Below are positions 1,104-60,689 of a stretch of DNA of 64,000 nt, piece by piece. The stretch is from Microgenomates group bacterium (GTDB lineage: Bacteria; Patescibacteriota; Microgenomatia; Daviesbacterales; UBA10151). The number at the start of each line of letters is the position of its first letter. The first letter of the stretch is position 1. The position numbers and the translations under genes are program-made. The notes beneath the pieces are model-generated. The model made no database searches. It was not told the origin of the DNA and saw only the letters and a list, made by a program, of their open reading frames with translations. The stretch is taken from NCBI GenBank assembly GCA_041659805.1, contig JBAZXP010000001.1:880224-944223 (forward strand). Direction: 5' to 3'.

Positions 1104-1666
1104 ATATTTCTTAAATTAGTCACGATAACTGAGTTTCTTGATTTATCTGCTACCCCTCCGGTCGGCTGTACATTTACTTCAGTTTTTACCTTTACAGCAG
1201 ACGTGGGGGAGACGATATTGTCGTTTTGATCTAAATAGGTAAATGCAATTGATTGTAAAATACTGGAAAGAACCTTGGTTTGCGAAATTCTTTTACTAGC
1301 AGAATCAGGAAAAACATAGAGCATAAGGAGGTTTGTTTTCACCGCATCTTTAGTAATTACTACATAATCATATGTATTATTAATAATTCCGCTGACATCA
1401 AAAGAAGGAATTTTAAGAACCAGGGTAGTTCCATTTGTAGTATAAAGAGGAGTAATTAGTGGATAACTATTTACAACAGCTGACGCCTGTCTGATGTTAG
1501 TTTCAATTTCACTAACAGCATCGTTTATACTCAAGCCTGATGTAACCAATGACGTTTGCTTATTATATAGACCAGTGTTATTTACCAAAATACTTGCCAA
1601 AAGCGTTCCTACAATAATAAAAACAGCAGCCACAACCAATGTCTCCACAAATGTGAAGCCTCTCAT
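1100..1666 (-). CDS. prepilin-type N-terminal cleavage/methylation domain protein (minor pilin/pseudopilin)
   Basis: N-terminus MRGFTFVETLVVAAVFIIV matches the class III signal (G|FT.E + hydrophobic helix). Confidence 0.7.
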   Translation of the reverse strand: MRGFTFVETLVVAAVFIIVGTLLASILVNNTGLYNKQTSLVTSGLSINDAVSEIETNIRQASAVVNSYPLITPLYTTNGTTLVLKIPSFDVSGIINNTYDYVVITKDAVKTNLLMLYVFPDSASKRISQTKVLSSILQSIAFTYLDQNDNIVSPTSAVKVKTEVNVQPTGGVADKSRNSVIVTNLRNI

Positions 1667-2091
1667 TGTCCCAAACCTCTTTCTGTCATAAGAGTTGAAA
1701 GTTCAACTTTTTTTACAACTCCTGCTTCTTGCCAAAAAACCGTTACCTTTATTTTCTTTGCAACCTCGCCTGATGCACAAACTTCTATAGGACAATCTGA
1801 TACTTCATATTGAGCGGCAGGGGAGGGGAGCTTAAATAAACTCGCGTCAGTAAAAGTATTCATACCGTTTGATAAACCTGAGTAAGGTTGCTTCCTTAAA
1901 AGATCAATTTCTTTATTGGCAATCTCTTTTGCCAAAGAGGTATTTCCGCTATTCCTAATGCTTTGAATTGAAGCTGGAAGAGATGCAATAAGAACGGCAA
2001 GTACTCCCACTGCAACAACGACTAGTATAAGTTCTATTAATGAGATTCCTCTCTGATTTTTAATTTTAAGCACCGGGTTTATATTGTTCAC
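1663..2091 (-). CDS. prepilin-type pseudopilin
   Basis: KNQRGISLIELILVVVAVGVL prepilin motif. Confidence 0.65.
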   Translation of the reverse strand: MNNINPVLKIKNQRGISLIELILVVVAVGVLAVLIASLPASIQSIRNSGNTSLAKEIANKEIDLLRKQPYSGLSNGMNTFTDASLFKLPSPAAQYEVSDCPIEVCASGEVAKKIKVTVFWQEAGVVKKVELSTLMTERGLGQ

Positions 2092-3029
2092 TCTTTTTTT
2101 AAGTTGCTTGCGGAAAATAATACATAGTCAAAAAGCTGAGGCATCACCCCGCGGTAATTTGTCACCTCAAGAGATCTCTTTACATCACCTGAAGTACCTG
2201 AGGCTCTGTAAATATTAGCCTGAGTCGGAAGGGAACCTATTCCGGGTTTTAAAGCAACAGGATGTTCAGTATCAGTGTAAAGTAACCTGACCCTTACCAT
2301 GATCAATATATTATTACCTGAGTGGGGCAAGATGCTGGGAACATCAGAGGTTGAAGGAACACGGACCTGGCAGTAATAATTAGCTGTTGCACCATCATCA
2401 ATAAGTGTAGAAGTGTCGCGCACGTCGCAAGAAGAAATACTCGATTGAGTAGTATTATTTATACGCGGAGCATTAATAAGACTTCCGTCCCTGTACGAAT
2501 CATAGTATTTCTTTAGAGTCTTATATTTTTTGTCAGTATCATCCCAATACACGATATCCAATTCAACCGCGGGCTGATTGGCCAATCTGCCTCCTTTAGT
2601 CTCATCGTACTTATCGTGATTAGGATCTCCGAAGTAAAGATAAAAGTAATCTTCATTATACGAACGCGCCATTGTCTCGGGATTAGCTAACCAAAACTGG
2701 GCAAAGGTGCGTTTGGTATAAGGAGCAAAACTGAGAGCATTACTCCCAACAGGGGTTGCACCAGCTGAAGCAGAGGCAGCAGCAGCATTGCTTAAATTAA
2801 AAGGATTTACCTGAGTAGTAGTAGTTCCTCCAATATTATTCTCGTTTTGTTTTATCGCTTTTTCTATAGCAGCTTCTGCAGCAGAAAAAGCCCGGGAAGA
2901 GTCTTCGCTTTTCCTTGAGGTTGATACTTCGAGGATGCTTCGTCCTATGGTTGATAAACCAATAGCAAGTGCTACTACCATAATCAACAGAAGCAATATC
3001 ACAACCTGTCCTGAACTATTATTTTTCAT
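2088..3029 (-). CDS. PilX-like pilus assembly protein
   Basis: MKNNSSGQVVILLLLIMVVALAIG...AAEAAIEKA, a PilX N-terminal-like region, followed by a Ser/Thr/Asn-rich extracellular part. Confidence 0.5.
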   Translation of the reverse strand: MKNNSSGQVVILLLLIMVVALAIGLSTIGRSILEVSTSRKSEDSSRAFSAAEAAIEKAIKQNENNIGGTTTTQVNPFNLSNAAAASASAGATPVGSNALSFAPYTKRTFAQFWLANPETMARSYNEDYFYLYFGDPNHDKYDETKGGRLANQPAVELDIVYWDDTDKKYKTLKKYYDSYRDGSLINAPRINNTTQSSISSCDVRDTSTLIDDGATANYYCQVRVPSTSDVPSILPHSGNNILIMVRVRLLYTDTEHPVALKPGIGSLPTQANIYRASGTSGDVKRSLEVTNYRGVMPQLFDYVLFSASNLKKE

Positions 3030-3691
3030 CTTATGCCCCCTCTTACTTGTACGGAAGTTGCAAAAGGTATCCCGTTATCCGCAACAGTCACGTCATAAGC
3101 ATAACCTGCCAAAACTCCGGCTGACGCATTAAATTTGATTAATACATTATCTCCTCGTCTGTCAAAAATATCTTGCCCAGGTGGGGTATAATCAATAGAA
3201 ACACCGTTTACAGGATCAGCATCTGTTAAAGACTGAATAAAATTACTTCCTGTATTTAAATTGGTTTCATCATGTTCTGTACAAAGCTGATCATCAGTTA
3301 CATCACCGGCAAGATCATTTCTAATAAAATTAATTTTTTGGATTTTACCGTTCAACATAGCAGAAGGAGAGGAAAACTTATACTGAGTATACGTTCCTCC
3401 CTTAGTTATGACAAGCGTATCTTTGGGAGACACTCCTGGATTATGAAATTTATCAACACAAACTATACCGTCAGCATCCCTAATCTCATTTGATAATTTA
3501 TCCAGTACAACCTGTCCGTTCTGCTTCACCTGATTGATTGCCTTAACCTTATTCCTCCCCCTTAAAGCATCAATCAATATATTAGTAAAAATTACGCCCA
3601 AAACAACCATAATAGACACTACAACAAGTAACTCTATAATGGTAAAACCGTTATTTTTATTATTTATATTTTTATCTTTATATACAATCAT
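3026..3691 (-). CDS. prepilin-type pseudopilin
   Basis: NNKNNGFTIIELLVVVSIMVVLGV. The likely start is the internal Met (MIVYKDKN...). The track ORF extends to 3736. Confidence 0.6.
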   Translation of the reverse strand: MIVYKDKNINNKNNGFTIIELLVVVSIMVVLGVIFTNILIDALRGRNKVKAINQVKQNGQVVLDKLSNEIRDADGIVCVDKFHNPGVSPKDTLVITKGGTYTQYKFSSPSAMLNGKIQKINFIRNDLAGDVTDDQLCTEHDETNLNTGSNFIQSLTDADPVNGVSIDYTPPGQDIFDRRGDNVLIKFNASAGVLAGYAYDVTVADNGIPFATSVQVRGGIR

Positions 3692-4247
3692 AATTTGGTT
3701 TTGTAATAACTGTTTCCAAATCAGAACTATGTGCACCAGACGTATCGCTCCAACTTACACCTACAGTTACGTTAACATAGTCTGTCGCAACGGCACGATT
3801 TGGCTGACTCACTTGGATTTGCCTTGTAAATATACTATCCGGTATTTTGACGCTTTTTGCAAAGGGGGGACTATCTGTATTACCCAGAAAGGCAAGGGTT
3901 CCACTTTCGGTTAAATCATAGTAGCATACTTTACCTGGTAGGCCGCAAAAAAAGTCTGTACCACTTGTATTATTCCATAGCTCCATAAAACACTTAGATA
4001 CTGTCGGGCTAGTTAAAGTATTGTAAGCATTGTTATCCCGGAGAATCCTAATTCTATCTATCGTATCTTGAGCTAATTTTGTTGCCTGAGTCTGATTTTG
4101 TGCAAACTGGGCATTTTTAAGGCTCGATAAAATAATCATTACTAAAGCAATAATCATTATGGCAGATACAACTCCTACTACCAGTACTTCAATTAAACTC
4201 TGACCTTTTTCATTGATTCTTAACATAAATACCTCCTCCTTTTTCAA
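3678..4247 (-). CDS. prepilin-type pseudopilin
   Basis: INEKGQSLIEVLVVGVVSAIMIIALV. The track start looks like TTG; the ATG (MLRINEKGQS) about 20 nt downstream is the probable start and overlaps the TGA stop of the upstream gene. Confidence 0.55.
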   Translation of the reverse strand: MKKEEVFMLRINEKGQSLIEVLVVGVVSAIMIIALVMIILSSLKNAQFAQNQTQATKLAQDTIDRIRILRDNNAYNTLTSPTVSKCFMELWNNTSGTDFFCGLPGKVCYYDLTESGTLAFLGNTDSPPFAKSVKIPDSIFTRQIQVSQPNRAVATDYVNVTVGVSWSDTSGAHSSDLETVITKPNYDCI

Positions 4248-4782
4248 CTACCACCTTCCTTGTATTCCCGGATGAAGATAAGGTAATCTCCAAATTAGAA
4301 TTAGTTTCATCCACGCATCTCGGTGAATTTGGATCATTAAAGGATATGTTTGAGGTAATATTGTTAAACTTTACTTGAAGCGGTAAGGTGCCCGCTACAT
4401 TACATGGAGTAGTGCTACCGCTGATTACCACAGGAACAATTGCTACATTAGATACAATGACTCCTGCACTAAGATCGGTTTCCACTGCCGGTTGAGAACC
4501 CCCTTCGCAAACAGGGGATAGCGAATAGAATGTATTGAGACTAGGATCACTACTTATATCTATGCGCCAATAAAGTGCTCTGCTGTCATCTTTACAAACA
4601 GTGCCGGTTTGGGCGTTATTTTGGGCGTGACGCAACACAGCCTGCAACTGATTAACAGCCTCAGCTAATTTTTGATTATTGCTGTAATCATTATAGGAAG
4701 GCACTGCTACAACTACGATAATGGCTATAATTGCAATTACCACCATTAATTCTATCAGAGTAAAACCCCTATATCCCCGCAT
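4210..4782 (-). CDS. type IV pilin-like protein (GspH/FimT-like)
   Basis: MRGYRGFTLIELMVVIAIIAII with a short leader before G. It ends in a TGA stop. Confidence 0.65.
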   Translation of the reverse strand: MRGYRGFTLIELMVVIAIIAIIVVVAVPSYNDYSNNQKLAEAVNQLQAVLRHAQNNAQTGTVCKDDSRALYWRIDISSDPSLNTFYSLSPVCEGGSQPAVETDLSAGVIVSNVAIVPVVISGSTTPCNVAGTLPLQVKFNNITSNISFNDPNSPRCVDETNSNLEITLSSSGNTRKVVVEKGGGIYVKNQ

Positions 4783-4820
4783 ACATTAAACGTACCAATT
4801 TTTAGCGCAATTAGCAATTA

Positions 4821-5300
4821 TTACTGCGAAGAAAGTCCGATATTACAATTTTCTCCACATGTTCCGGCCGGTAAATCACCACAAGCTACAAGATCATTGG
4901 AAGTATCTGAGCTTTCTCTGCTGGCACAAAGATTAAAATTAGTACAAGCTGTTTCTTTGGAAAGATTGTCGCAAGCACCAGACGGACCATAAGCAGAATA
5001 ATAATAATTTCTATTTGAATCCATGTCTTTGGGAACCGATGCAAGATAAACAGTATTCCCATTTGTTAACGTAATACCGTTTGTGGTTAAGATAAAAATA
5101 TCTGCCAGAGGATAACTATGCACATCCCCCCGATAAAGCTCCAGCGCCTGTTTTATAGTCTGTAAATCCCTTAATCTTTGGGAATCTCTGCTTCTAGATA
5201 GAACTCCTCCAAAAAAAACCATGGCAACAGCAGAGAGGATACCAATAATTGCCACTGTGATTATTAATTCGACTAGAGTGAAACCATCTTTCTTAACCAT
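4821..5300 (-). CDS. type IV pilin / GspG-like pseudopilin
   Basis: MVKKDGFTLVELIITVAIIGILSAVA...RDSQRLRDLQTIKQALELY, a GspG/PulG-type motif. Confidence 0.7.
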   Translation of the reverse strand: MVKKDGFTLVELIITVAIIGILSAVAMVFFGGVLSRSRDSQRLRDLQTIKQALELYRGDVHSYPLADIFILTTNGITLTNGNTVYLASVPKDMDSNRNYYYSAYGPSGACDNLSKETACTNFNLCASRESSDTSNDLVACGDLPAGTCGENCNIGLSSQ

Positions 5301-5303
5301 ATT

Positions 5304-5765
5304 TCATGGTGCACTAACCTGATACTGAGCTGATGCAGAGGCACAAGGAGGATCAGAAGCCAAAACAGCATTCGATTCGTTTTCCACATTCGCAAAAAGA
5401 CAATAATTTGTGCAGTAGGTATTAGGATCATTGTCATTGTCAGTACAAGAACCGGGGTACTTTGCGTAGAAGTAAGTTCCCGGCGGTATCTCTTGGGGAA
5501 CTTTTGACATATATACCTTAGCTCCTCCGGGATCTACCAAAGTTGTACCTAAGGTTAGAGGGTAATATCCCTGATCTGCATGATATTGTTCCAAAGCTGA
5601 TTGGATTGTTGATATGTCTGATTTTCGTCTGGCATCCCGACCATTTTTTTGGATATTTCCATAGGAAATTAAAGCAATTGTCATTAGAACCGACAATATA
5701 GAAATGGTAACCAAAAGCTCAATAAGGGTAAAACCCTCACAAAATCTTTTACATTTTCCCCTCAT
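5304..5765 (-). CDS. type IV pilin / GspG-like pseudopilin
   Basis: EGFTLIELLVTISILSVL...RDARRKSDISTIQSALEQY. Confidence 0.7.
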   Translation of the reverse strand: MRGKCKRFCEGFTLIELLVTISILSVLMTIALISYGNIQKNGRDARRKSDISTIQSALEQYHADQGYYPLTLGTTLVDPGGAKVYMSKVPQEIPPGTYFYAKYPGSCTDNDNDPNTYCTNYCLFANVENESNAVLASDPPCASASAQYQVSAP

Positions 5766-5856: not shown

Positions 5857-8010
5857 ATGACATATAGTAATATACTTTCATTTTTAAATAAAAAGATTGT
5901 ACATATTATTGTGCTGCTTCTGATAGTTGCTGCTGCTTATGTAAATATCTTTCAAAATGATTTTGCCTTTGATGATCCAACATTTATTACCGGATGGAAA
6001 GACATACAAACCACAACAGAGATTCCTTATTTATTAAAAGGAAGTCTTCCTTTGGGACATACGGGATTATATAGACCCTTAAGGAGCATGTTCTATGTCC
6101 TAAGTTACCATTTGTGGGGCGAAAATACCTTCGGCTATCACTTACAATCGTTATTTATAATAATAAGCCTGACATTGCTCACATATCTTATTGTTTCAAA
6201 TCTGACAAAAAAACATTTTACGGCAATGGTTGCAGCCATGCTATTTGGTTTACATCCGATTCACACCGAATCAATTACATTTATGACTGCCAGTTTTGAT
6301 GCAATAGGAACAGTTTTCTTTTTCCTTTCCTTTTACCTATATATTAAATACAGAAACAATAGCGAAAGGGTTCTTTTTTTACTATCTATTCTTACCGCGA
6401 CTATTGCATTTTTTACATATGAAGTTACGCTTACATTACCGCTACTATTATTTTTATATGATTCATTGTTTTTAAAAAAGAGTTTTCAGTTCAAATCAAA
6501 AATAATGTTAAGTCAGATATCTCCATATATTCCATACTTAACGATTCTTGCTTTCTATCTTTATACCAGGATGTTTTATTTGCAAATCGTAGAAAGGGGA
6601 GCTTACCTTTTAGGAAGCCCGTTTATTACTTTCTTAGTCCAGGTTCAAGCCATTACCTTATACATCAGGTTACTATTTTTACCAGTAAACTTAACAGTAA
6701 ATCACTTGATAGCACCCGGTATTGTTGCGTTCACCTGGGCTGAAATATCTGAAAAAGCACTCAGGGCTCAATCTCTTTTTTCCATAGAAGTTCTAACCTC
6801 AATTATTTTAATAATAAGTATATTTACAATCGCCATAGTATGTTTCAGAACAAGATCGTGGGTGACATTTTGTATTTTCTGGTTTTTTATTTCCTTGGCA
6901 CCTGTATTAAATATTATTCCACAAGGTGCTGTCATGACTGAAAGATATTTGCTAATTCCATCTTTTGGTTTTTGCACATTGATTGCTGTCATTATCGGAA
7001 ACGTTTATAAATTAAAAGCTAAGAATTTAAACTATAAATATCTGATAATCACTTTTCTGATCATCACATCCGGTTTCTTTTTTATACAAACTGTTTACAG
7101 AAATTCTGAGTGGAGAAGCAGCATAACGCTTTGGGAAAGTGCAAATAGGTTAAACTCAAATAGCTATATTAACGTCACAAATCTGGCAGTAGGCTATGCA
7201 ATCGCCAACAATCCTCAAAAAGCTTTAAATCTATTTCAAAAGGCGGAGAATATTGCATCTAATAACTACCACACTCATCAAAATCTTGGGGTACAGTACT
7301 TTAAAATGAAGAAATACGACCTAGCAATCGAAGAATATTATAAGACAATTCAATTGGAGCCAAAATTGTCATATTTATACACTGCATTAAGCGTCGCTTA
7401 TCTGGAAAAAGAAGATTATGATAGGGCAATCACTTCTTCTAAAAAAGCGATTGAGGTTAGTGAAGGCTTGGATCCGATGGCTTATTTCCATTTAGGGGAA
7501 GCTTACAGCAAACAAAATAGAACTGATCTGGCAATTGATAATTATAAAAAAGCTCTTCATGTTGATCCCAAAAACCCAACAACTCATTTCAGACTCGGCT
7601 ACACCTACTATGAGCAGGGGAAATATAAAGAGGCTATTTCTGAATACGAAGAAGCATTAATCTTTAATCCTAAATCGTCTGAAATTTATTACAATATGGG
7701 GAAATCCCTGGAGAGTCTTAACCGGCCGGATTTAGCATTACAACAATATAAAAAAGCTATTGAGCTTGATCCTAAATCAGCAGCTGCTCACAATAATGCC
7801 GGAATTATTTATACCGGCTATAATAGATCGGATGAAGCTGAAAAAGAATTTAACACAGCAATTTCTCTTGATCCAAATTTAGCTGAAGCATATTTTAATC
7901 TCGCATACATATATAAAACACAAAACAAAATAGACCTAGCAACAATACAATTACAGAAGGGTTTACTTTTGGATCCTACAAACGAAAAAGCTAAAAAATT
8001 GTTAAACTAA
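5857..8010 (+). CDS. polytopic membrane protein (GT-C/PMT-like glycosyltransferase fold suspected) with a C-terminal TPR-repeat domain
   Basis: About 12 predicted TM helices in the N-terminal 450 aa, with FDD near the N-terminus. The C-terminal 270 aa consists of canonical 34-aa TPR repeats (AxxxLGxxYxxxxxYxxAIxxYxKALxLDP). Confidence 0.5.
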   Translation: MTYSNILSFLNKKIVHIIVLLLIVAAAYVNIFQNDFAFDDPTFITGWKDIQTTTEIPYLLKGSLPLGHTGLYRPLRSMFYVLSYHLWGENTFGYHLQSLFIIISLTLLTYLIVSNLTKKHFTAMVAAMLFGLHPIHTESITFMTASFDAIGTVFFFLSFYLYIKYRNNSERVLFLLSILTATIAFFTYEVTLTLPLLLFLYDSLFLKKSFQFKSKIMLSQISPYIPYLTILAFYLYTRMFYLQIVERGAYLLGSPFITFLVQVQAITLYIRLLFLPVNLTVNHLIAPGIVAFTWAEISEKALRAQSLFSIEVLTSIILIISIFTIAIVCFRTRSWVTFCIFWFFISLAPVLNIIPQGAVMTERYLLIPSFGFCTLIAVIIGNVYKLKAKNLNYKYLIITFLIITSGFFFIQTVYRNSEWRSSITLWESANRLNSNSYINVTNLAVGYAIANNPQKALNLFQKAENIASNNYHTHQNLGVQYFKMKKYDLAIEEYYKTIQLEPKLSYLYTALSVAYLEKEDYDRAITSSKKAIEVSEGLDPMAYFHLGEAYSKQNRTDLAIDNYKKALHVDPKNPTTHFRLGYTYYEQGKYKEAISEYEEALIFNPKSSEIYYNMGKSLESLNRPDLALQQYKKAIELDPKSAAAHNNAGIIYTGYNRSDEAEKEFNTAISLDPNLAEAYFNLAYIYKTQNKIDLATIQLQKGLLLDPTNEKAKKLLN

Positions 8011-8022
8011 AATAGATAAAAG

Positions 8023-8406
8023 TTAGCGTTGTTGACTCTTCTGGCAGTAGCTTCCACCTGCTTCTAAGACAGCGCAGATGTTGTATCCTGTTGTATTAGA
8101 GGTAGCTGATGGAATATCCCAATATGGAGCTGCTCCTGCTAAACCTGTAGGAATAGATCCTGAAGCAAACATTGAACCTGCTGCAGGTGTATAAAGGTTT
8201 GTGCTGGTGTTGTAATTTGCCTCCATAGCGTTAGCAATTGCCTGAATTTCTGATCTTCTGGAAGCATCTCTGGCATTTCTTTGTAAACCTGAGAATACAG
8301 CAGTCCCGATAACAGCTAAAATGGCGATAATTGCAATAACAACCAGAAGTTCAACTAAAGTAAAACCTTGAGGATTTTCAGATGTCTTGGGCAGTAGTTT
8401 TTTCAT
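8023..8406 (-). CDS. type IV pilin (major pilin candidate)
   Basis: MKKLLPKTSENPQGFTLVELLVVIAIIAILAVIG...RRSEIQAIANA. It is a monocistronic small gene, and a TTGACA -35-like hexamer lies upstream. The track ORF extends to 8439. Confidence 0.7.
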   Translation of the reverse strand: MKKLLPKTSENPQGFTLVELLVVIAIIAILAVIGTAVFSGLQRNARDASRRSEIQAIANAMEANYNTSTNLYTPAAGSMFASGSIPTGLAGAAPYWDIPSATSNTTGYNICAVLEAGGSYCQKSQQR

Positions 8407-19633: not shown

Positions 19634-20992
19634 ATGACGGATTTACACACAGAAGACAACACCCAGACAAGATTCAAAGGGAAAAAAGTATTGATTTTAG
19701 GATTGGGAGTCAACCAAGGTGGAGTAGGGGCAACCAAGTTTTTCGTTAAAGCAGGGGCGCAAGTAAAAGTAACAGATATCAAAAACAAAGAAAGCTTAGC
19801 CAGCTCACTGCAAGAATTGGAAGAATTTGCAGGAATAGAATACACTCTTGGAGAACATAAATACGAAGATCTCGATTGGGCGGATCTAATTATTAAAAAC
19901 CCAGCCATTAAACCTGACAATCCATACCTGTTATATGCTATAAATCATGATAAACAAATTGAGATGGACATGGGTATTTTCCTACAACTCGTGTCTCCGG
20001 CTCAACTCATAGGGATAACCGGCACTAAAGGAAAATCAACTACTTCTACTCTAATTTACGAAATCCTGAAAAAATCTAATGATAATGTAATATTTGCAGG
20101 AAATATCGGTAAAAGCATCCTCGATACAGTCCCAATAATGAATGCTGAGAGTACAATTGTTCTGGAGTTATCTTCTTTTCAGCTGGAAGCTTTTGCCTTA
20201 CATCACATCTCACCTCATATTGCAGTCATAACAAATATTTTTCCAGACCACTTAAATTATTACAATACGATAGAAGAGTACATTGAAGCCAAAAGATTAA
20301 TTGCTAGAGAACAAGAATTAACTGATTATTTAGTTCTCCGCAAAAATGATACTATTACCAGCTCTCCTCATTTTCAAAACAATTTGGTGGGTAAAATAAT
20401 TTATTTTTCTCCTGAGGATTTACCTTCAGATATTCAACTCAAAATACCTGGAGAATACAATCTTTATAATGCTGCAGCAGCACTCGCAGTTGCAAAAATC
20501 CAAGGAATAGATGAAAAAGATGCCCTAGATACAATCAAGAACTTTAGTGGAGTAGAGTATCGGCTGCAATTGGTAAAAGAAACAAATGGTATAAAAATTT
20601 ATAATGATTCAGCCTCAACCATGCCTGAATCTGCAATTTGGGCAATTAAAAGCCTTAAAAATAGCATCATGATTTGTGGTGGAATGAATAAAAATCTGAA
20701 TTACAAGGAAATGGCAGGAGCATTAGCCTCTGACGCCAAAATGATTTATTTTATTGACGGCGATGCAACAGATGAAATAAAAAAACAGCTATCAGCCATC
20801 AGTCCTCAGTCGTCAGACAAGATAAAAGGGACGTATAGCGATTTAGAAAAACTTCTGACTGATGTAAAAGCAGTTGCAAAACCAGGAGATACTATTGTAT
20901 TTTCACCCGGCGCAACTTCTTTTAATTTCTTTCAAAATGAGTTTGACAGAGCCCGTAGATTTAACACTGCTGTTGAAAAAGTCTTTGGTTAA
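19634..20992 (+). CDS. murD: UDP-N-acetylmuramoylalanine--D-glutamate ligase
   Basis: KVLILGLGVNQGGVGATKF...GITGTKGKSTTSTLI Mur ligase motifs. Confidence 0.8.
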   Translation: MTDLHTEDNTQTRFKGKKVLILGLGVNQGGVGATKFFVKAGAQVKVTDIKNKESLASSLQELEEFAGIEYTLGEHKYEDLDWADLIIKNPAIKPDNPYLLYAINHDKQIEMDMGIFLQLVSPAQLIGITGTKGKSTTSTLIYEILKKSNDNVIFAGNIGKSILDTVPIMNAESTIVLELSSFQLEAFALHHISPHIAVITNIFPDHLNYYNTIEEYIEAKRLIAREQELTDYLVLRKNDTITSSPHFQNNLVGKIIYFSPEDLPSDIQLKIPGEYNLYNAAAALAVAKIQGIDEKDALDTIKNFSGVEYRLQLVKETNGIKIYNDSASTMPESAIWAIKSLKNSIMICGGMNKNLNYKEMAGALASDAKMIYFIDGDATDEIKKQLSAISPQSSDKIKGTYSDLEKLLTDVKAVAKPGDTIVFSPGATSFNFFQNEFDRARRFNTAVEKVFG

Positions 20993-23952: not shown

Positions 23953-26544
23953 ATGTCTAATATAGGTAAAATAGAATTAACCCCAATTGTAGAAGAGATG
24001 CGCAGGTCATACCTTGACTATGCCATGTCTGTTATTGTTTCCCGTGCTTTGCCTGATGTACGAGATGGCTTAAAGCCTGTGCAAAGAAGAATAATCTTTG
24101 TTATGTATGAGCTAGGCCTTTTACATTCTTCAACTTTTAGAAAATGTGCCAAAATTGCAGGTGACACTTCTGGAAATTACCATCCACACGGTGAATCAAA
24201 TGTTTATGGCGCTTTGGTAAATTTAGTGCAGGACTTTTCCATGCGTTATCCATTAATTGACGGTCAGGGAAACTTTGGTTCAGTTGATGGAGACATGCCT
24301 GCTGCCATGAGGTACACTGAAGCGCGTTTGGCAAATATTTCTGAGGAAATGCTCAGAGATATTAACAAAGGTACTGTTGATTTTATTCCAAACTATGACC
24401 AAACAAAAAATGAACCAACAGTTTTACCTGCAGGAATTCCAAATTTATTACTTAATGGTGCGTCAGGTATTGCTGTTGGTATGGCAACTCAAATTCCACC
24501 TCATAATTTAGGAGAGTTAATTAATGCATTGACTTTCATGATTGATCATCCAGTAAAGCCAGAGGTTCAGCAAAAGTCAGCAAATCAGCAAATCAGCACG
24601 TCAGCGGATCAGCAGGAAAAAGACACTAATTCTGCCGATACTCCGACACTCCGACCTACTGACATTCAGATTCCAGCTGAAACTACTGGAAAATTCCGCT
24701 CAGAAGCCACGGTTGAAGATTTATTAGAATTTGTAAAAGGCCCTGATTTTCCAACAGGTGGATCAATTTATGATCAATCAGAAATTATTAATGCTTATGC
24801 AACTGGTAAGGGCAGAATTGTAATGAGGGCTAAAGCAGAAATTGAAGAAGCCAAAAATGGCAGATTTGATATTATCGTGACAGAACTTCCATACCAGGTT
24901 AATAAGGCAACCTTAATCACCAGAATTGCAGAATTACACAAAGACAAAAAAATAGAAGGAATTTCAGATCTCCGGGATGAATCAGATAGAAGGGGAATGA
25001 GGATTGTAATGGAGTTAAAGCGCGATGCAAAGCCCCAATCTCTACTTAATAACCTTTATAAACACACCTCAATGCAGTCAGTTTTTAATGTAAATATGGT
25101 GGCTTTAGTTGATGGAGTACCTCATTTACTACCACTCAAATATATTCTGGAAGAATTTATCACCCACAGACAAATTATTGTCAGGCGTAGATCAGAGTTT
25201 GAATTAGCAGAAGCCAGAGCCCGTGAACATATCCTGGAAGGGTTAAAAATTGCTGTTGATAATATTGATGAGGTTATTGCCACAATCAGAAAAAGCAAGG
25301 ATGCAGATGACGCCAAGACTAATTTGATGACCAAATTTAAGCTAAGTGACTTGCAAGCTCAGGCAATTTTGGACATGCAACTGCGCAGGTTGGCAGCCTT
25401 GGAAAGACAAAAAATTGAAGATGAGCTTAAGATGGTTCGCGAAACCATTGCCTACTTAGTAGACCTCTTGGCACATCCTGAAAAAATACTGGGAGTTATC
25501 AAAGATGAACTGGCAAAAATTAAGGATAAATTTGCAGACGAGAGAAAAACCCGCGTTTACAAACAAAAAATTGGCGAATTCTCTGAAGAAGATTTAGTGG
25601 CAGATGAACAAACAATAGTAACAATCACTGAAGGAGGTTATATTAAAAGACAACCACCTTCAACTTTTAGAATACAAAATAGGGGAGGAAAGGGTGTTTC
25701 TGGTATTACTACCAAAGAAGAAGATGCAGTTTCCCATATTTTCTACACCAAAACATTAGATAATATTTTGTTCTTTACAGATAAGGGTAGGGTTTTCCAA
25801 ATGAAGGTCTGGGAGATACCAGAAGCCTCCAGAATAGCCAAAGGGCAGGCGATTGTTAATTTAATTAACATTGAGCAAGGAGAAAAAATTACTGCTATTT
25901 TAACGCTCCGACAAAAAGATTCAACTAAATACTTATTCATGTGTACTAAATTCGGTAATGTTAAGAAAACAGAAATAGGAGAATACTCTTCTATTCGGAA
26001 AAATGGTTTAATTTCCATTAAACTGGACGAAAACGACGAGCTGGGATGGGTAAATCCGACAACAGGGGAAGACGAGATGATTATTGTGTCCCGTGATGGT
26101 CAATCAATCAGGTTTAGTGAACACGATGTCAGATCTACACACAGAGATACTGCCGGGGTTAGAGGAGTGAAGCTAAATAAAGGAGATACTGTTGTTTCAG
26201 CTCAAAAGATTGATGATCCAAAATCAGATACAGTTTTAGTGGTTATGGCAAATGGCTTAGGCAAAAAAACCATGATCGCCAATTGGACCAGACAAATTAG
26301 AGGAGGAATGGGTGTTAAAGCAGCCCAGGTAACAGAGAAGACAGGCCCAATTATGACAGCCCAGATTGTTGAAAAAGGCGTTGATACATTGGTGCTTACT
26401 TCTAACAAAGGTCAGATTATTAAATTAAATTTAAATGATGTTCCAACACTTCAAAGACAAACTCAGGGGGTAATCCTCATGAGAATGCGGGAAGGTGAAA
26501 AAGTAGCTGCAGCAGCTATTGTTTCATCCAAGGAAAAAGAGTAA
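23953..26544 (+). CDS. gyrA: DNA gyrase subunit A, with an in-frame low-complexity insertion
   Basis: LPDVRDGLKPVQRRI...QIPPHNL...GPDFPTGG and C-terminal beta-pinwheel repeats. There is a ~45-aa Q/S/T/D-rich insertion between IDHP and VEDLLEFVKGPDFPTGG. Confidence 0.95.
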   Translation: MSNIGKIELTPIVEEMRRSYLDYAMSVIVSRALPDVRDGLKPVQRRIIFVMYELGLLHSSTFRKCAKIAGDTSGNYHPHGESNVYGALVNLVQDFSMRYPLIDGQGNFGSVDGDMPAAMRYTEARLANISEEMLRDINKGTVDFIPNYDQTKNEPTVLPAGIPNLLLNGASGIAVGMATQIPPHNLGELINALTFMIDHPVKPEVQQKSANQQISTSADQQEKDTNSADTPTLRPTDIQIPAETTGKFRSEATVEDLLEFVKGPDFPTGGSIYDQSEIINAYATGKGRIVMRAKAEIEEAKNGRFDIIVTELPYQVNKATLITRIAELHKDKKIEGISDLRDESDRRGMRIVMELKRDAKPQSLLNNLYKHTSMQSVFNVNMVALVDGVPHLLPLKYILEEFITHRQIIVRRRSEFELAEARAREHILEGLKIAVDNIDEVIATIRKSKDADDAKTNLMTKFKLSDLQAQAILDMQLRRLAALERQKIEDELKMVRETIAYLVDLLAHPEKILGVIKDELAKIKDKFADERKTRVYKQKIGEFSEEDLVADEQTIVTITEGGYIKRQPPSTFRIQNRGGKGVSGITTKEEDAVSHIFYTKTLDNILFFTDKGRVFQMKVWEIPEASRIAKGQAIVNLINIEQGEKITAILTLRQKDSTKYLFMCTKFGNVKKTEIGEYSSIRKNGLISIKLDENDELGWVNPTTGEDEMIIVSRDGQSIRFSEHDVRSTHRDTAGVRGVKLNKGDTVVSAQKIDDPKSDTVLVVMANGLGKKTMIANWTRQIRGGMGVKAAQVTEKTGPIMTAQIVEKGVDTLVLTSNKGQIIKLNLNDVPTLQRQTQGVILMRMREGEKVAAAAIVSSKEKE

Positions 26545-31878: not shown

Positions 31879-32583
31879 TTAGTGCTGTGGCGGTACCGTC
31901 AATAAATCGTTCGGCCCACAACGTGGGTTTTGCGGAATAGTAGCAACCGGATTACCAGTACAATAAACCATACCATTAAGTGTCTGTGCGTTAGCTACAA
32001 TGTAATAACGTTGACTATCATTTGGGTATACCCATGTACCAGAAGCTGTACATGTACTGGCTCCGCCACAATCATTATTAACCGCTACCTGAGTCCAGGA
32101 ACTTGCCAGTGTTAAATTAGATGCTTGATTAGCTACATATACCCATGCTTTTCTGAGATTTACTCCTGTTGCAGTAGTGGTATATGTATTATTTGGTCCG
32201 GAAGATACAGAAGCAGAAAGTCCTGGAAACGGAGAAGGAGAAATTGGAGCTGAAGTTGGTACTTGTGTCACACTAGCTGTGGGTACTGTGGTAGTAGTTG
32301 GATTTGCTGTCGCAGTAGGGGTTACAGAACCGGGTTCTCCATATGGGCCAAAAGGAGAATGAAAAGCTATATCTACATTAGGCGAAGTAGTTCTACAACC
32401 GCTAGTATCACAAGTAACGCCTGTCCCACCAAAAGTAATTGCCTCACCTGCAGCCCTGGAGCGAAGTCTTTGTTGCTGTTGAACTAAATAAACGCTTAGA
32501 GGAACTGCTACAACTACTAAGATTAAAACAACAGCAGCTATGATATTTCTTCGAGTTAAAAAGGATTTTATAGAGTCATTCAT
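31879..32583 (-). CDS. surface protein with a conserved N-terminal TM + QQQQRLRSRAAGEAITF motif, a T/P-rich linker and a Cys-containing C-terminal domain
   Basis: First gene of the cohesin/dockerin operon. It is a paralog of the 89-aa product. Confidence 0.55.
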   Translation of the reverse strand: MNDSIKSFLTRRNIIAAVVLILVVVAVPLSVYLVQQQQRLRSRAAGEAITFGGTGVTCDTSGCRTTSPNVDIAFHSPFGPYGEPGSVTPTATANPTTTTVPTASVTQVPTSAPISPSPFPGLSASVSSGPNNTYTTTATGVNLRKAWVYVANQASNLTLASSWTQVAVNNDCGGASTCTASGTWVYPNDSQRYYIVANAQTLNGMVYCTGNPVATIPQNPRCGPNDLLTVPPQH

Positions 32584-32635: not shown

Positions 32636-32772
32636 CACAGTTCAGCAAATCAGCAGTTCAGCAAATCGGCAAATTCAGCGAGTCAGCAAGACAGAATGTC
32701 AAATGAGTGGTTTATATTGTACGACAAGACATCAGTAGATCAGCATGTCGGCGAATCGGCAAATTCAGCAGA
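32636..32772. repeat. iteron-like degenerate direct repeats (cagcaaatc[a/g]gcaaattcagcgagtcagcaag family) in a divergent promoter region
   Basis: At least five tandem or dispersed copies are visible. Inverted copies lie at 33163-33203 and 33961-34030, and a related copy inside gyrA at 24568-24616. Confidence 0.6.
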
Positions 32773-53280: not shown

Positions 53281-54607
53281 GAGGCGGTCTTCCTCTTCCT
53301 CTTTCCATACCATAAAACTTTACCTTTTCTGGGATAAACATTAATTTAATCTCTCCTGTAGGACCATTTCTGTGTTTTTGAATATCCAAAGTTGTGTCTT
53401 TCATATTGTCTGCGTCCTCTCGATAGATAAACATAACAACGTCGGCATCCTGTTCAATTGCTCCTGATTCCCTAAGGTCAGCCAATTGCGGTCTTCTTGA
53501 ACCCCTTGACTCAACAGCACGAGATAGCTGAGACACACAAAGAACAGGCACTTTTAATTCCCTGGCTAAATTTTTAAGTCCCTGTGAAATTTCAGAAACC
53601 TCCTGAACCCTGTTTTCCTGTCCCCTACCATGAATAAGTTGCAAATAGTCCACAATCAGGAGTTTCAAACCATGTTCCATCTGCAATCTTCTGGCCTTTG
53701 TCCTGATATCTGCTAAAGATACACCCGGAGTATCATCAATAAATAAAGGTGCCTCCGCCAATTCTCCGTAAGCATGGGAGATTCTATCAAAATCATTATC
53801 ATCCAGCTTTCCTGTTTTTAATTTCCAGGCTTCAATTTCAGATTTTGAAACAATAATCCTATCTACCAACTCTTCCTGAGACATTTCCAAAGAAAAAATA
53901 CCTACAGGCATACCTGCTTTTACAGCCACATGTTCTGCCACATTAAGCACGAACGATGTTTTTCCCTGACCGGGACGGGCAGCAAAAATAATCAAGTTTG
54001 ATTCCTGCATACCAGCCAATTTATTGTCTAAATCCTTAAACCCTGTCGGAACTCCACGTAATTTTCCTGAAGTTTTTTGCAACTCATCTAATCTATCAAA
54101 TGAAACAGTTAATAAATCCTTAAGAGGCACAAAATCACGTTTCAAACTAGCTTGGGACAGAGAAAAAATCCCCTGCTCAGCGTTTTCCAGTAAAGTGGGA
54201 ACAGGCACCGACTCGTCATAAGCCGTTTCTACCAATTTAGTTGCCTGAGAAATTAACCCGCGGCGGATGGCGTGTTCCTTGATAATCCTGGCATAATGTT
54301 CAATATGTGCAGAGGTTGGGACAATATTAACCAAGGTTGACAGGTAGGCTGATCCTCCTACAATATCCAGACTTTCTCCCTGACGGAGTTTTTCCGTAAC
54401 CGTCACCAAATCAATCGGTTCACGCTTATCATAAAGATTAAGGATTGCTTCATAAATCTTGCCGTGTTGTTCGGAACGGTAAAAATGGTGGGGAGCAACT
54501 ATTTCAGCAATCTTGATTACAGCATCTTTATCAATAAGAAGTGCCCCTAAAAGGGACTGTTCAGCTTCAATATTTTGCGGCGGAAGTTTCGATGTTTGAC
54601 TAGCCAT
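53258..54607 (-). CDS. dnaB: replicative DNA helicase
   Basis: PPQNIEAEQSLLGALL N-terminus and a RecA-like C-terminal domain with GARPGQGKT. Confidence 0.9.
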   Translation of the reverse strand: MASQTSKLPPQNIEAEQSLLGALLIDKDAVIKIAEIVAPHHFYRSEQHGKIYEAILNLYDKREPIDLVTVTEKLRQGESLDIVGGSAYLSTLVNIVPTSAHIEHYARIIKEHAIRRGLISQATKLVETAYDESVPVPTLLENAEQGIFSLSQASLKRDFVPLKDLLTVSFDRLDELQKTSGKLRGVPTGFKDLDNKLAGMQESNLIIFAARPGQGKTSFVLNVAEHVAVKAGMPVGIFSLEMSQEELVDRIIVSKSEIEAWKLKTGKLDDNDFDRISHAYGELAEAPLFIDDTPGVSLADIRTKARRLQMEHGLKLLIVDYLQLIHGRGQENRVQEVSEISQGLKNLARELKVPVLCVSQLSRAVESRGSRRPQLADLRESGAIEQDADVVMFIYREDADNMKDTTLDIQKHRNGPTGEIKLMFIPEKVKFYGMERGRGRPPHEESDGK

Positions 54608-54621
54608 AAAGCTTATTTATC

Positions 54622-55266
54622 TTAGCTTTTGGACAGAACCACAACTATTGTGGCTTCAGGCAGTTTATCACGGGTTATTGATAATTTTGGTTGCACTTCT
54701 GCGTTTTCCGCACCCATTTCTTTTAGAAACGCATCTACTTTTTCAAGCCCCTCAATTTTTAATTCCGGAATCAGGTAATGCATTGGGATGACGATTTTTG
54801 GCTCCAACTGAGCCACAACTTCTACAGCCAGTTCTGCATCCAAGGAAAATTTACCACCCACAGGAATCATTAATATATCTGTGCTATCAATTTTACTCAA
54901 CTGACTCTCAGTTAATTTATGTCCTAAATCCCCAAGATGCACAATGTTAATTCCATCCACTAATAAATGATATGCAGTATTTGTGCCTTTTTCTGCGCCG
55001 TTTGCATTGTCATGAAAAGTGGCAATCCCTTCAACGCTTACCCCGGCAACCTCATATTCACCTGGTCCGGCAATCACCAAAGGCGATCCGGTTACAGCCG
55101 CAACATTATTATGATCTTCATGAGAATGAGTGGATAGCGCAACTTGAGCATCTAAATCCTTAGGTAATTTTAATCCTGTGAATTCGGGATTAAAGGGATC
55201 AATAACTATGGTTGCGGTTTTACCTTTAATTTTAAAACAAGATTGGCCAAGCCAATAAATATCCAT
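54622..55266 (-). CDS. MBL-fold metallo-hydrolase
   Basis: HSHEDHNN (HxHxDH) motif. Confidence 0.7.
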   Translation of the reverse strand: MDIYWLGQSCFKIKGKTATIVIDPFNPEFTGLKLPKDLDAQVALSTHSHEDHNNVAAVTGSPLVIAGPGEYEVAGVSVEGIATFHDNANGAEKGTNTAYHLLVDGINIVHLGDLGHKLTESQLSKIDSTDILMIPVGGKFSLDAELAVEVVAQLEPKIVIPMHYLIPELKIEGLEKVDAFLKEMGAENAEVQPKLSITRDKLPEATIVVVLSKS

Positions 55267-55442
55267 GGCGAAATATTACCATAAATTTTGCCACAATCAC
55301 AAGATGACTTTAATATATTAATCTATTGCTTCTGGGGTATAATAGATTGGTGCATCTGACCCGAGTAACTGAAAATTCTGTCCAAACTGAACCTGACAAG
55401 ATATCCCTTGAGGTAAGCAATTTTGATAAGTTAAAACAAAAA

Positions 55443-55868
55443 ATGACTAAAAATTTAGGTACTAGCTCTTTTATTTTTTCAATGATCTTAATTTTGCTTG
55501 TGGCTTTGGGATTTTTTATGTATCTACATTTTTTTGTAAACCCTAAAGAAGAACCCTCAACCATTCTTAATTACCAACCAGTTACCACCAATCCCTTAAG
55601 CTTAACTTTAAACCTTTCCAGTCCTGATGATAACTTGTTGGTATACGATACCAATCTTCTTGTTTCAGGCCAAACTACATCCGGAACTTTGGTTTTAATA
55701 ACTATTAATGAAAACAATCAAACCTTAAACGCCTCAAAGCAGGGAGATTTTTCTCAAACCGTTAAATTGCAGTCAGGAATCAATCAAGTAATCGTGTCTG
55801 TTTTTGATAATCAGGGAAATTATAAAAGTGAAGAAAGATCCATTTACTATTCAGAGGAGAAGCTATAA
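55443..55868 (+). CDS. hypothetical membrane-anchored / secreted protein
   Basis: The internal Met precedes a TM helix (SSFIFSMILILLVALGFFMY), and the remainder is an extracellular beta-rich domain. The track ORF begins at 55326. Confidence 0.4.
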   Translation: MTKNLGTSSFIFSMILILLVALGFFMYLHFFVNPKEEPSTILNYQPVTTNPLSLTLNLSSPDDNLLVYDTNLLVSGQTTSGTLVLITINENNQTLNASKQGDFSQTVKLQSGINQVIVSVFDNQGNYKSEERSIYYSEEKL

Positions 55869-55872
55869 AAAA

Positions 55873-56661
55873 ATGTATAATTTAAAATTTAAAATTAATA
55901 ATTTCAGGAAAATAATAATTATTTTTGTTTTCTCATTCTTCATTCTTCATTCTTCATTCTTCATTCCCAAAGCTTTTGCTGCAGATTCCTCACCCAGCGC
56001 TGACATAAAAGAAAAGCTCAAACTCCTGCAAGAAGAAATTGCCTCACGAGCTGCAAACATTAAAAATGAAGTCAGTAAAAAACTTTTGAACAAAGCTTAT
56101 ATTGGAGAAATTACAACAAAAGATACAACTTCATTAACTGTAAACCTGAAATCAGGCCCAGGAAATATAACCATAAATGAATTTACTGAATATATTATTA
56201 AATCAAAAACATATACAGGAGATGCAGGATTGAAAAATCTGAATATTTCAGATTTCATTGCTGCTTTAGGAGACGCTGATGATAAAGGAGTTGTAACTGC
56301 CAAACAAATCGTTAAAATCACCAAACCAAACCCTAAAAAGATTGTTTATGGAATTTTAATAACTGTTGGCAAAGACTCAACCACTTTAAAAACCAACCAA
56401 AACGATCAGTTTTCAATAAATTTTGATAAAAATACTGATTATCAATTAAATAGCGTAGACAGCAGTTTTAAAGAAATTAAAGAAAACAGATGGATTATTG
56501 TAGTGGGAGAAGAAATTAAACCAGTTGAAAACAAAGCTAGCACGGTCTCTGCAACTCCTGCACCTCCCCCTGTTCTTTTGGCAAAATTCGTCTATATTTT
56601 CCCGAGTGGTATTACACCCAAACCTAAAGCTTCTACTCCCTCAACTACTATAAAACCTTAA
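55873..56661 (+). CDS. secreted hypothetical protein with a signal peptide
   Basis: MYNLKFKINNFRKIIIIFVFSFFILHSSFFIPKAFA|ADSS. The signal-peptide codons contain a heptanucleotide tandem repeat. Confidence 0.5.
   Translation: MYNLKFKINNFRKIIIIFVFSFFILHSSFFIPKAFAADSSPSADIKEKLKLLQEEIASRAANIKNEVSKKLLNKAYIGEITTKDTTSLTVNLKSGPGNITINEFTEYIIKSKTYTGDAGLKNLNISDFIAALGDADDKGVVTAKQIVKITKPNPKKIVYGILITVGKDSTTLKTNQNDQFSINFDKNTDYQLNSVDSSFKEIKENRWIIVVGEEIKPVENKASTVSATPAPPPVLLAKFVYIFPSGITPKPKASTPSTTIKP
55930..55967. repeat. heptanucleotide tandem repeat (CATTCTT)x4.7 inside a coding sequence
   Basis: ttctCATTCTTCATTCTTCATTCTTCATTCTTCATTCcc, read directly from the sequence. Confidence 0.8.
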
Positions 56662-57773
56662 AGATATTCTTCCTGATTGTTTTCTTTGAGTTTTTCTATC
56701 ACTTTTTTTACATCCTGAGTTTTATCCTTATGACAAATTAAAATGGCATCTTTGGTATCAACCACAACAATATCTTTTAAGCCAATCATGGCAATTAATT
56801 TTTGATTTCCTTCCACTAAACAATTCTCACTGTTTACATTAATCAGTAGACCATCTTCATCATCTACCACGTTGCCATTTTCATCTTTTTGTTTGGTATC
56901 ATAAATAACTTTCCAATCCCCCACATCATTCCAACCAAAATCCCCAGGGATTACCACCAAATTATCAATTTTTTCAGAGACAGCCACGTCAATTTGAACA
57001 TTTTCTGCTTTCTCATAAATATTCTTAACCACTTCCTTCTCGTCTTGTGTTTCAAGACTATCATATATCCTTTCTAATTCTTTATTTAAAGCAGGTGCAT
57101 TTTTACCTATTGCCTTAGAGATTACCTCAACTGACCAGCAATACAAATTTGCGTTCCATAAATAGTTGCCCGAATCCAAAAATTTCTGGGCAGTTTCCAA
57201 GTCAGGCTTTTCTTTAAAACCATCTCCTTTATATACAGATACAGTTTCATTGGAATATTTATCTAAGTGTGTTCCTGTTTTTATATAACCCAAACCGGTA
57301 TGAGCGAATGTCGGTTTAATCCCGATTGAAACAATATGATCATCTGAACCTGCAACCACCAAAGCACCATTAATCGTTTGCCTGAAAGTATTTTCATCCT
57401 CAATTAATTGATCTGCTGCCAGATTTACGATTACTGCTTTTGGATCTCTTTTTCTGACAACAGTTGAGGCATAACCCATGGCCAAAGCTGTATTTTTACC
57501 CATCGGCTCTGCAATAATGTTTTCTTCCAAAAGTTCTGGAAGCTGCTCTTTTATATCATTAACATAACTTTCCAGGGTAATTAAAAAAATTCTTTCTTTG
57601 GGAATAAGAGGCACAATTCTATCAAAAGTTTGTTGCACCATGGTTTTTTTACCATAAAGTTTTAGTAAATGTTTAGGAGTTTTTTTGCGGGATTTTGGCC
57701 ATAATCTGGTTCCCCCACCCCCTGCTAAAATCACAGCATAAAAATTATCAGAATTTCCCATTCGCTTACCCAA
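56658..57773 (-). CDS. mannose-1-phosphate guanylyltransferase-like sugar nucleotidyltransferase
   Basis: YAVILAGGGGTRLWPKSRKKTPKHLL N-terminus plus a C-terminal LbH-like region. Confidence 0.75.
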   Translation of the reverse strand: MGKRMGNSDNFYAVILAGGGGTRLWPKSRKKTPKHLLKLYGKKTMVQQTFDRIVPLIPKERIFLITLESYVNDIKEQLPELLEENIIAEPMGKNTALAMGYASTVVRKRDPKAVIVNLAADQLIEDENTFRQTINGALVVAGSDDHIVSIGIKPTFAHTGLGYIKTGTHLDKYSNETVSVYKGDGFKEKPDLETAQKFLDSGNYLWNANLYCWSVEVISKAIGKNAPALNKELERIYDSLETQDEKEVVKNIYEKAENVQIDVAVSEKIDNLVVIPGDFGWNDVGDWKVIYDTKQKDENGNVVDDEDGLLINVNSENCLVEGNQKLIAMIGLKDIVVVDTKDAILICHKDKTQDVKKVIEKLKENNQEEYL

Positions 57774-60638: not shown

Positions 60639-60689
60639 ACTAGCTTTCAGTCTTCAGCCATCAGTCTTCAGACTATGTATAATTAACCT

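Follow-up and report, generated by a model that had tools for sequence, protein, structure and literature searches.

Introduction

The closest described relatives of the locus reported here are genes in which a short tandem repeat, inside or just upstream of the coding region, varies in length. The opa genes of Neisseria carry CTCTT repeats in their leader-peptide codons, where slipped-strand mispairing shifts the reading frame (PMC3960869). The neuO gene of Escherichia coli K1 carries AAGACTC heptamers in its 5' coding region and is ON in one of three copy-number classes; its tracts hold 3-53 repeats, most commonly 20, and 66% of genomes are OFF (PMC13001214). In Haemophilus influenzae, hmw1A and hmw2A have promoter heptamers, (ATCTTTC)n, whose copy number varies between strains (PMC8262952). 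Intergenic heptamers are also found as the STRR repeats of cyanobacteria and the TAACTGA repeats of marine Beggiatoaceae, both with a lineage-specific predominance of the 7-nt unit (PMC4679880), and Mrazek et al. (2007), as summarized in PMC4679880, describe heptamers as the commonest long-unit class of simple sequence repeats (SSR) in many prokaryotes, possibly reflecting a polymerase footprint. Here we describe an array of heptanucleotide units that lies within the signal-peptide codons of a secreted-protein gene from an uncultivated groundwater bacterium of the Microgenomates group, which belongs to the Candidate Phyla Radiation (CPR; Patescibacteria). The array lies in a stretch of 64,000 nucleotides of contig JBAZXP010000001.1 (assembly GCA_041659805.1), hereafter the window. 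On a modest balance of the evidence, we favor the interpretation that this array is a slippage-driven translational ON/OFF frameshift switch of the opa/neuO kind.

To our knowledge, nearly all phase-variable contingency loci described so far come from host-adapted pathogens and commensals. An initial annotation of the window, made from its letters, had proposed the array as a candidate phase-variation switch with the classic architecture of contingency loci. We have followed this proposal through the window and through the orthologous loci of related genomes and metagenomes.

Results

The heptamer array and the reading frame

Tandem Repeats Finder (TRF) reported the array on the forward strand at 55933-55966 as a period of 7 with 4.9 copies, 100% matches and the unit TCATTCT; the repeat that had been annotated as CATTCTT x4.7 at 55930-55967 is this same tract in another rotation. 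We refer to it as site B (Table 1). Its 34 nt make up the longest perfect period-7 run in the window; shuffling the window 200 times with dinucleotides preserved gave longest runs of 15.3 nt on average and of 20 nt at most. At periods of 4 to 12, no other region of the 64 kb reached 24 self-matches out of 28, and the tract and one hexamer together accounted for all perfect repeats of three or more copies. Only two period-7 runs of at least 17 nt were present in the window, one at site A (55879-55896) and the other at site B, and both fall in the gene at 55873-56661; among the 21 window open reading frames (ORFs) with signal- or transmembrane (TM)-like N-termini, the secreted-protein gene was alone in having such runs.

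Site B thus comprises a perfect tandem repeat inside an ORF with a unit that is not a multiple of three, as is expected of a translational phase-variable locus. In an in-silico copy series from 1.86 to 8.86 copies, the full-length product was obtained at 1.86, 4.86 and 7.86 copies only (255, 262 and 269 aa, respectively), and all other counts terminated at 38-52 aa. Gain or loss of one or two units yielded a product of 38-49 aa and a change of three units kept the frame, bearing out the annotated claim that a single 7-nt unit gained or lost would frameshift the protein. A second expectation for such loci, namely that the full-length product is lost with a one-unit change and regained with a further one, was borne out in this series as well as in a natural allele, L082, described below.

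Table 1. Positions of the features discussed; coordinates are those of the window unless a related locus (L number) is named
Feature	Position	Strand	Description
Upstream operon partner gene	55443-55868	+	141 aa; N-terminal TM helix and one Ig-like domain (Glucodextran_B/Big)
Shine-Dalgarno (SD)-like sequence	55853-55861	+	AGAGGAGAA; 13 nt before the ATG, inside the end of the upstream gene
Site A	55867-55907	+	Decayed heptamer array, AAAATTT-like, ~5 units; perfect AATTTAA x2.6 at 55879-55896; spans start codon and n-region
Secreted-protein gene (coding sequence, CDS)	55873-56661	+	262 aa; long helix, two beta-barrel (DUF5666/OB-like) domains, Pro/Thr/Lys-rich tail
Predicted signal-peptide codons	55873-55980	+	36 aa, MYNLKFKINNFRKIIIIFVFSFFILHSSFFIPKAFA; predicted cleavage before ADSS; from n/h/c layout, A-x-A boundary and alignments
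Site B	55933-55966	+	Perfect (TCATTCT)x4.86, five TNNATTC units; CDS nt 61-94, codons 21-32, signal-peptide h-region
Site A in orthologues			Just after the ATG; units AATTTAC, AAAAATC, AAAATTC, AAATATC, ACAGGTT, GTATTAT
Site B in orthologues			h/c-region; units TCATTCT, CATTCTA, TTTTACA, CTATACC, CTTCACC, CACTTTT, TACTTCA
Site C in orthologues			Inter-domain linker 'LLPTTNYQLPT'; units ACTACCA, ACTCCCA
(AGCTGAT)n array	L041 2326-2392; L042 2305-2392; L043 2335-2392; L033 2460-2496		5.3 copies in L033

The secreted protein

The annotated ORF and the peptide encoded by its array, FSFFILHSSFFIPK (residues 20-33), were recovered as described. This gene is real, since its product has 234 homologues at E<=1e-10 and an AlphaFold2 model with a mean pLDDT of 81. 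In this model, a helix at residues 10-30 gives way to a disordered segment; a second, long helix spans residues 43-70, and there are two beta-barrels. The N-terminus reads MYNLKFKINNFRK-IIIIFVFSFFILHSSFFI-PKAFA, with the predicted cleavage before ADSSPSADIK, and comprises a positively charged n-region, a hydrophobic core and an A-x-A site. Across the family alignment, the boundary between A-x-A and the following (A/V)-D-S is conserved, and it is there that sequence conservation begins. Based on this layout and the conserved boundary, the N-terminus is predicted to be a Sec signal peptide, in agreement with the annotation of the protein as secreted.

The mature part, consisting of a helix and two DUF5666/OB-like barrels, may reside at the cell surface. 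No Pfam family matched the window protein above threshold, and a Foldseek search of its model against PDB returned generic OB-fold matches without any functional assignment; the homologues P0013, P0020 and P0022 scored 26.6-29.8 bits against DUF5666 (PF18914), for which the gathering cut-off is 27. A weak match of the window protein to the NCBIfam LMxysn_1693 colonisation-protein family (22 bits vs. a cut-off of 70) is noted as a lead. Homologues occur in Daviesbacteria/Microgenomates-type CPR genomes and in metagenomes, with one locus from each of 39 assemblies, and the family looks to be single-copy per genome. The window protein itself has an identical counterpart, a hypothetical protein, in a 'Microgenomates group bacterium' metagenome-assembled genome (MAG), and the nearest DNA relatives, found among GTDB species representatives and JGI contigs, have 56-61% protein identity to it. 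Look-ups by exact sequence with this protein, with its alternative call of 277 aa and with the neighboring ManC turned up no record that would supply strain-level DNA from the source species.

Period-7 arrays in orthologous loci

We fetched 119 related loci totalling 560 kb (L numbers below) and added eight more later. Among the perfect tandem repeats in the 560 kb (period 2-16, at least three copies), 43 of 45 had a period of 7, and ~38 of these 43 arrays sat at three sites in the orthologous secreted-protein gene (sites A, B and C, Table 1). The signal-peptide coding sequences of these Daviesbacteria-like CPR bacteria, 89 distinct ones after removal of duplicates (9.3 kb), were then scored for tandem runs: 34 harbored at least 2.5 perfect period-7 copies, and none harbored a run of period 4, 5, 8, 10, 11 or 13.

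The main rival to a switch is that these arrays are a mutational by-product, with slippage biased toward 7 nt, arrays persisting wherever constraint on the protein is weak, and frameshift variants being rare, deleterious and purged. The distribution of the arrays does not sit easily with this explanation as evidenced by: 1) arrays per kb are far denser in the signal-peptide codons (34 in 9.3 kb) than in the flanks or in upstream, mostly intergenic DNA (3 in 17.6 kb), with the mature codons having 3 in 52 kb and the far flank 1 in 116 kb; 2) the partner gene, whose TM helix lies ~450 nt upstream, had no heptamer arrays in 32 kb from 72 distinct orthologues, TM helix included; 3) the other 20 signal- or TM-like N-termini of the window are without arrays; and 4) the arrays are repeatedly perfect even though the unit differs between species. 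Because the partner TM helix and the 20 other hydrophobic N-termini lack arrays, the by-product view is weakened. On the other hand, all three intragenic sites (the n-region, the h-region and the linker 'LLPTTNYQLPT') are weakly constrained, decayed arrays are common (L044, L122, L001), a fossil array remains in frame in murD (window 20780-20822), and a general heptamer bias of long-unit bacterial SSRs, with a polymerase-footprint explanation, is on record (Mrazek et al. 2007, as summarized in PMC4679880). Weighing these points, we regard the by-product view as rather unlikely.

Other explanations fared less well. At one and the same gene position, more than 15 different units were found across orthologues, and a binding site for a regulator with a fixed motif was rejected because the units vary so freely. 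We give next to no credence to an assembly or sequencing artefact, since arrays of the same kind were present in independent assemblies (NODE_ contigs, k141 contigs, Rifle scaffolds, JGI and Logan); different assemblers and independent data sets agreed, and some loci were 100% identical across data sets.

At site C, perfect linker arrays were found in L014 (3351-3381), L017 (3429-3459), L023 (3363-3391) and L106 (619-641). With ACTACCA x4.1-4.4 or ACTCCCA x3.3, they encode the entire linker ('PTTNYQLPT' or 'PTPNSQP'), and the linkers of other orthologues resemble decayed arrays of these two units.

Uniform units within arrays and natural length alleles

Signal peptides of the window type invariably have five TNNATTC units at site B. 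Among them, the unit is TTCATTC in all five positions of the window array, TACATTC in L004 and L120, and TCCATTG/TCCATTA in L097, with mixed or decayed units in L044, L049, L124, L001 and L122. Given that units are uniform inside each array yet differ between genomes, this pattern points to homogenisation by repeated contraction and expansion, i.e. to what would be ongoing slippage. It also bears on the idea that the peptide F-x-F-[FY]-I-L-H-S-x-F-[FY]-I-P is itself required, with the DNA periodicity being incidental. A similar peptide is indeed present in P0006, P0013, P0004, L004 and L044, but a 7-nt period in the DNA confers no benefit at the peptide level, units are identical within a genome even at would-be synonymous positions and yet differ between genomes, and other orthologues have entirely different signal peptides. 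Selection on the peptide, already disfavored on these grounds, was rejected as the cause of the periodicity, and we consider it very improbable.

Length differences of whole units were found among natural alleles. In L082, one frame holds the SD, the ATG and a normal signal peptide, and another holds a fully open mature ORF of 242 codons; the junction between frames lies in a CTATACC array that is one unit shorter than those of L016 and L083, and addition of one unit yields a 256-aa ORF. L127 has the cassette type of L082 but is 21 nt (three units) shorter, remains in frame and has a signal peptide shorter by 7 aa. At site A, L096 has one unit fewer than L047 followed by a frame-restoring insertion, which looks like a compensated frameshift. 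Outside of the coding region, L041, L042 and L043, from three metagenomes, are >99.4% identical over 5-6.7 kb, and the sole indels among them (7, 21 and 28 nt) are in an (AGCTGAT)n array of 8.6, 9.6 and 12.6 copies. This array lies between the operon and a divergent gene for a metallo-beta-lactamase (MBL)-fold hydrolase, immediately 5' of a TTGACC...TAATAT that resembles a promoter; no promoter heptamer array is present in the window. In view of L082, L127 and these promoter-array differences, slippage does happen in this secreted-protein family.

Signal-peptide cassettes

All non-identical close pairs of loci examined had unrelated signal-peptide codons of differing length. In the pairs L050/L053, L055/L069, L004/L019, L048/L051 and L012/L054, the mature regions and flanks are 86-100% identical and the signal regions 36-60%; L050 and L053 are 100% identical over 1598 nt 3' of the cleavage site, with a signal region (~55%) at the background level of unrelated pairs. 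Many distant pairs have signal regions that are 80-89% identical and mature regions that are 62-74% identical. The signal-peptide types that recur, roughly eight of them, are interspersed with one another when the mature proteins are clustered. Since slippage alone cannot shuffle cassettes, either recombination between lineages or long-lived allelic classes must act on this region.

These same observations (the five close pairs, the distant pairs and the intermixed types) would favor viewing the arrays simply as features of long-lived cassette types, with a mosaic signal region swapped via homology arms at the SD-ATG and at 'AADSTPSADIK'. As an explanation of the arrays, we find this improbable: it accounts neither for the exclusive period of 7 and the perfect homogeneity within arrays nor for alleles one and three units apart within a single cassette type, and it is compatible with slippage switching rather than an alternative to it.

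A broader reading combines both processes in a dedicated hypermutable 5' module that Daviesbacteria-like CPR bacteria may maintain on a single conserved operon, in which heptamer-only arrays, in the promoter region and at sites A, B and C, are repeatedly born, homogenised and decayed and in which ~eight cassettes are exchanged or kept independently of the mature protein. We put this forward tentatively and consider it doubtful. If true, the cleaved signal peptide or its DNA would have to be subject to balancing or frequency-dependent selection over the long term, or to targeted recombination, and the CPR would have its first described contingency-locus system. The signal-peptide region possibly has a function of its own: it might, for instance, be released as a peptide signal or be targeted by phage or host factors. 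Diversity-generating retroelements make adenine-specific changes in a C-terminal variable region, whereas the changes here involve all bases as well as length and are at the N-terminus.

Operon partner and neighborhood

The partner gene adjoins the secreted-protein gene in all loci examined, forming a conserved two-gene unit with the secreted-protein gene second. In the window, the stop codon of the upstream gene (TAA, 55866-55868) is separated from the ATG by a junction of 4 nt. Orthologous loci keep the tight junction or, in several cases, have overlapping genes; the upstream gene of orthologues ends in a conserved '...YYS.EK[IL]' followed by the stop, and the SD-ATG is readable in frame as 'KGENM'. 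The conservation of this tight junction or overlap suggests that the two genes are translationally coupled. In the loci inspected, the MBL-fold hydrolase and dnaB genes are upstream on the opposite strand, and a ManC gene is a neighbor in the window. PamR, the putative membrane anchor of the recently described CPR Pam pilus, was rejected as an identity for the partner protein (NCBIfam 27.5 bits vs. a cut-off of 300), the Ig-like domain being all that they have in common, and no pam genes are adjacent to the partner gene. An Rfam scan of 54500-57000 returned nothing at or near the gathering score of any family.

Many of the operon-bearing contigs (L002, L007-L009, L014, L015 and others) are titled 'uncultured Gammaproteobacteria bacterium' (TPA_asm MAGs), which is probably a taxonomic mislabel. 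Elsewhere in the window, ORFs with type IV pilin-like N-termini, G-F-T-L-[IV]-E-L-[LM]-V, are encoded on the minus strand at 1100-5765 and 8023-8406.

Other repeats

In murD (19634-20992), decayed heptamers (CAGCTAT CAGCCAT CAGTCCT CAGTCGT CAGACAA) at window 20780-20822 (+) encode 'QLSAISPQSSD'. Their unit is the reverse complement of that in the AGCTGAT promoter arrays, and the peptide of this unit, 'ISYQLSA', recurs upstream of the hydrolase gene in L033 and, in some orthologous signal peptides (P0050), within the n-region. In gyrA (23953-26544), imperfect octamers, TCAGCAAA x ~5-6, at window 24569-24617 (+) make up an in-frame insertion in GyrA, 'QQKSANQQISTSADQQ', and an octamer-related 8/16-mer is found at 32637-32677, in the divergent spacer upstream of another secreted-protein gene on the minus strand (31879-32583).

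Degenerate heptamers (TTCAGTC TTCAGCC ATCAGTC TTCAGAC) are located in the rpmE-prfA spacer (60646-60671), with a TATAAT-like box immediately downstream. In L042 (2262-2292), a comparable run, AGTCGTC AGTAGTC AGTCGTT AGTCTTC, stands beside the promoter array, and TCAG-containing heptamers may be a recurrent upstream promoter element. Heptamers outside of the operon were also found in L100, where (AATTTCT)x4.4 at 1726-1756 is directly upstream of the dnaB start codon, and in L007, where (AGATTCA)x3.9 at 5927-5953 is in the spacer downstream of hisS.

Discussion

The switch that we propose for site B would operate as follows. Slipped-strand mispairing at replication would add or remove one 7-nt unit, shifting the frame beyond ~codon 30, so that translation would stop after 38-49 residues and no secreted protein would be made (OFF). 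A slip of one unit back, or of two more units in the same direction, would restore the frame (ON), and a change of three units would leave the gene ON with a hydrophobic core that is 7 residues longer or shorter. The same period-7 device, built from differing units, would recur at sites A, B and C of orthologues and in the promoter region of the operon. Because period-7 arrays recur at three intragenic sites as well as in the promoter region, this locus appears to have been kept mutable rather than to be so by accident. We infer, in addition, that an array of five units switches often enough to be of consequence, that the switch can revert and that selection favors it, for instance because it varies a phage receptor or a component of the surface or of host contact.

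Several observations weigh against this proposal. The tract comprises only ~5 units, far fewer than in classic loci such as neuO, and slippage rates fall steeply with tract length. Orthologues of the same signal-peptide type that are ON always have exactly five units at site B and encode a similar peptide, F-x-F-Y-I-L-H-S-x-F-Y-I-P. In the cluster of the window protein (two NCBI accessions and two contigs), the protein is identical and the copy number equal. Among ~119 loci, L082 is the one OFF allele; P0020, P0030, P0084 and P0101, considered as OFF candidates on account of their short N-termini, were all in-frame ON genes with late start calls. The low copy number, the invariant five units and the rarity of OFF alleles are likewise what the by-product view would lead one to expect. 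As to variation of copy number among relatives, which the initial annotation had suggested comparing, alleles lacking one unit (L082) and three units (L127) do exist, but the fixed count and similar peptide of same-type ON alleles come near to the invariance that would argue against a switch.

We nevertheless retain the switch as our preferred explanation, with a reservation about its pace. The phase-variable class is by convention applied to switching rates above ~1e-5 per generation. With ~5 units, always five in same-type ON alleles, and a single OFF allele, the switch is probably a low-frequency one; more generally, OFF rarity, the invariant count and the short tract suggest either that the rate is low to moderate or that ON is strongly selected. 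Since consensus assemblies hide minority alleles, the low OFF count is compatible with switching. The description of site B as a classic contingency locus is therefore apt with respect to its architecture, less so with respect to high-frequency switching, considering ~5 units and 1/~119 OFF vs. 66% OFF in neuO.

Should the array switch, a secreted or envelope protein would be under stochastic ON/OFF control in ultra-small and probably episymbiotic groundwater bacteria, and the two-gene operon would be pointed to as a determinant of host contact or a phage receptor. The family-wide pattern also offers clean natural data on how heptamers arise, are homogenised and decay, and on why the 7-nt unit predominates. 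In the literature searched, we found no paper joining phase variation, the CPR and tandem repeats, nor one joining heptanucleotide repeats with Patescibacteria. The mechanism of a slippage switch is of a known kind; its occurrence in the CPR/Patescibacteria lineage is new in the literature searched, as are heptamer exclusivity with free turnover of units, concentration on one single-copy gene and the behavior of the cassettes.

How, then, does this locus compare with those already described? As in opa, a repeat whose unit is not a multiple of three is positioned inside signal- or leader-peptide codons, where a change in units frameshifts the mature protein. The opa unit, however, is 5 nt in many copies and in a multigene family, in contrast to 7 nt, ~5 copies and a single-copy gene here; opa switches at a measured rate of ~1e-3 in a host-adapted pathogen, whereas the window array is known from sequence, in a groundwater CPR bacterium. 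With neuO, it shares a heptanucleotide unit at the 5' end of the ORF and a full-length product in one of three copy classes, but the neuO repeats encode part of the mature enzyme and those of the window are in a cleaved signal peptide; neuO also has a single unit sequence and 66% OFF, unlike the many units, ~5 repeats and ~1% OFF of the window family. The (AGCTGAT)8.6-12.6 arrays upstream of the operon in L041-L043 look like the promoter heptamers of hmw1A, with the difference that such an array is present in some orthologues and absent from the window. The STRR and TAACTGA repeats share with this family a lineage-specific predominance of 7-nt repeats, yet those systems consist of one or a few fixed units that recur at many loci genome-wide, mostly in 5' untranslated regions (UTR) or intergenic DNA, and are proposed as binding sites. 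The window array is coding, and in its family nothing but the period is constant, the units vary freely and the arrays cluster in a single coding region.

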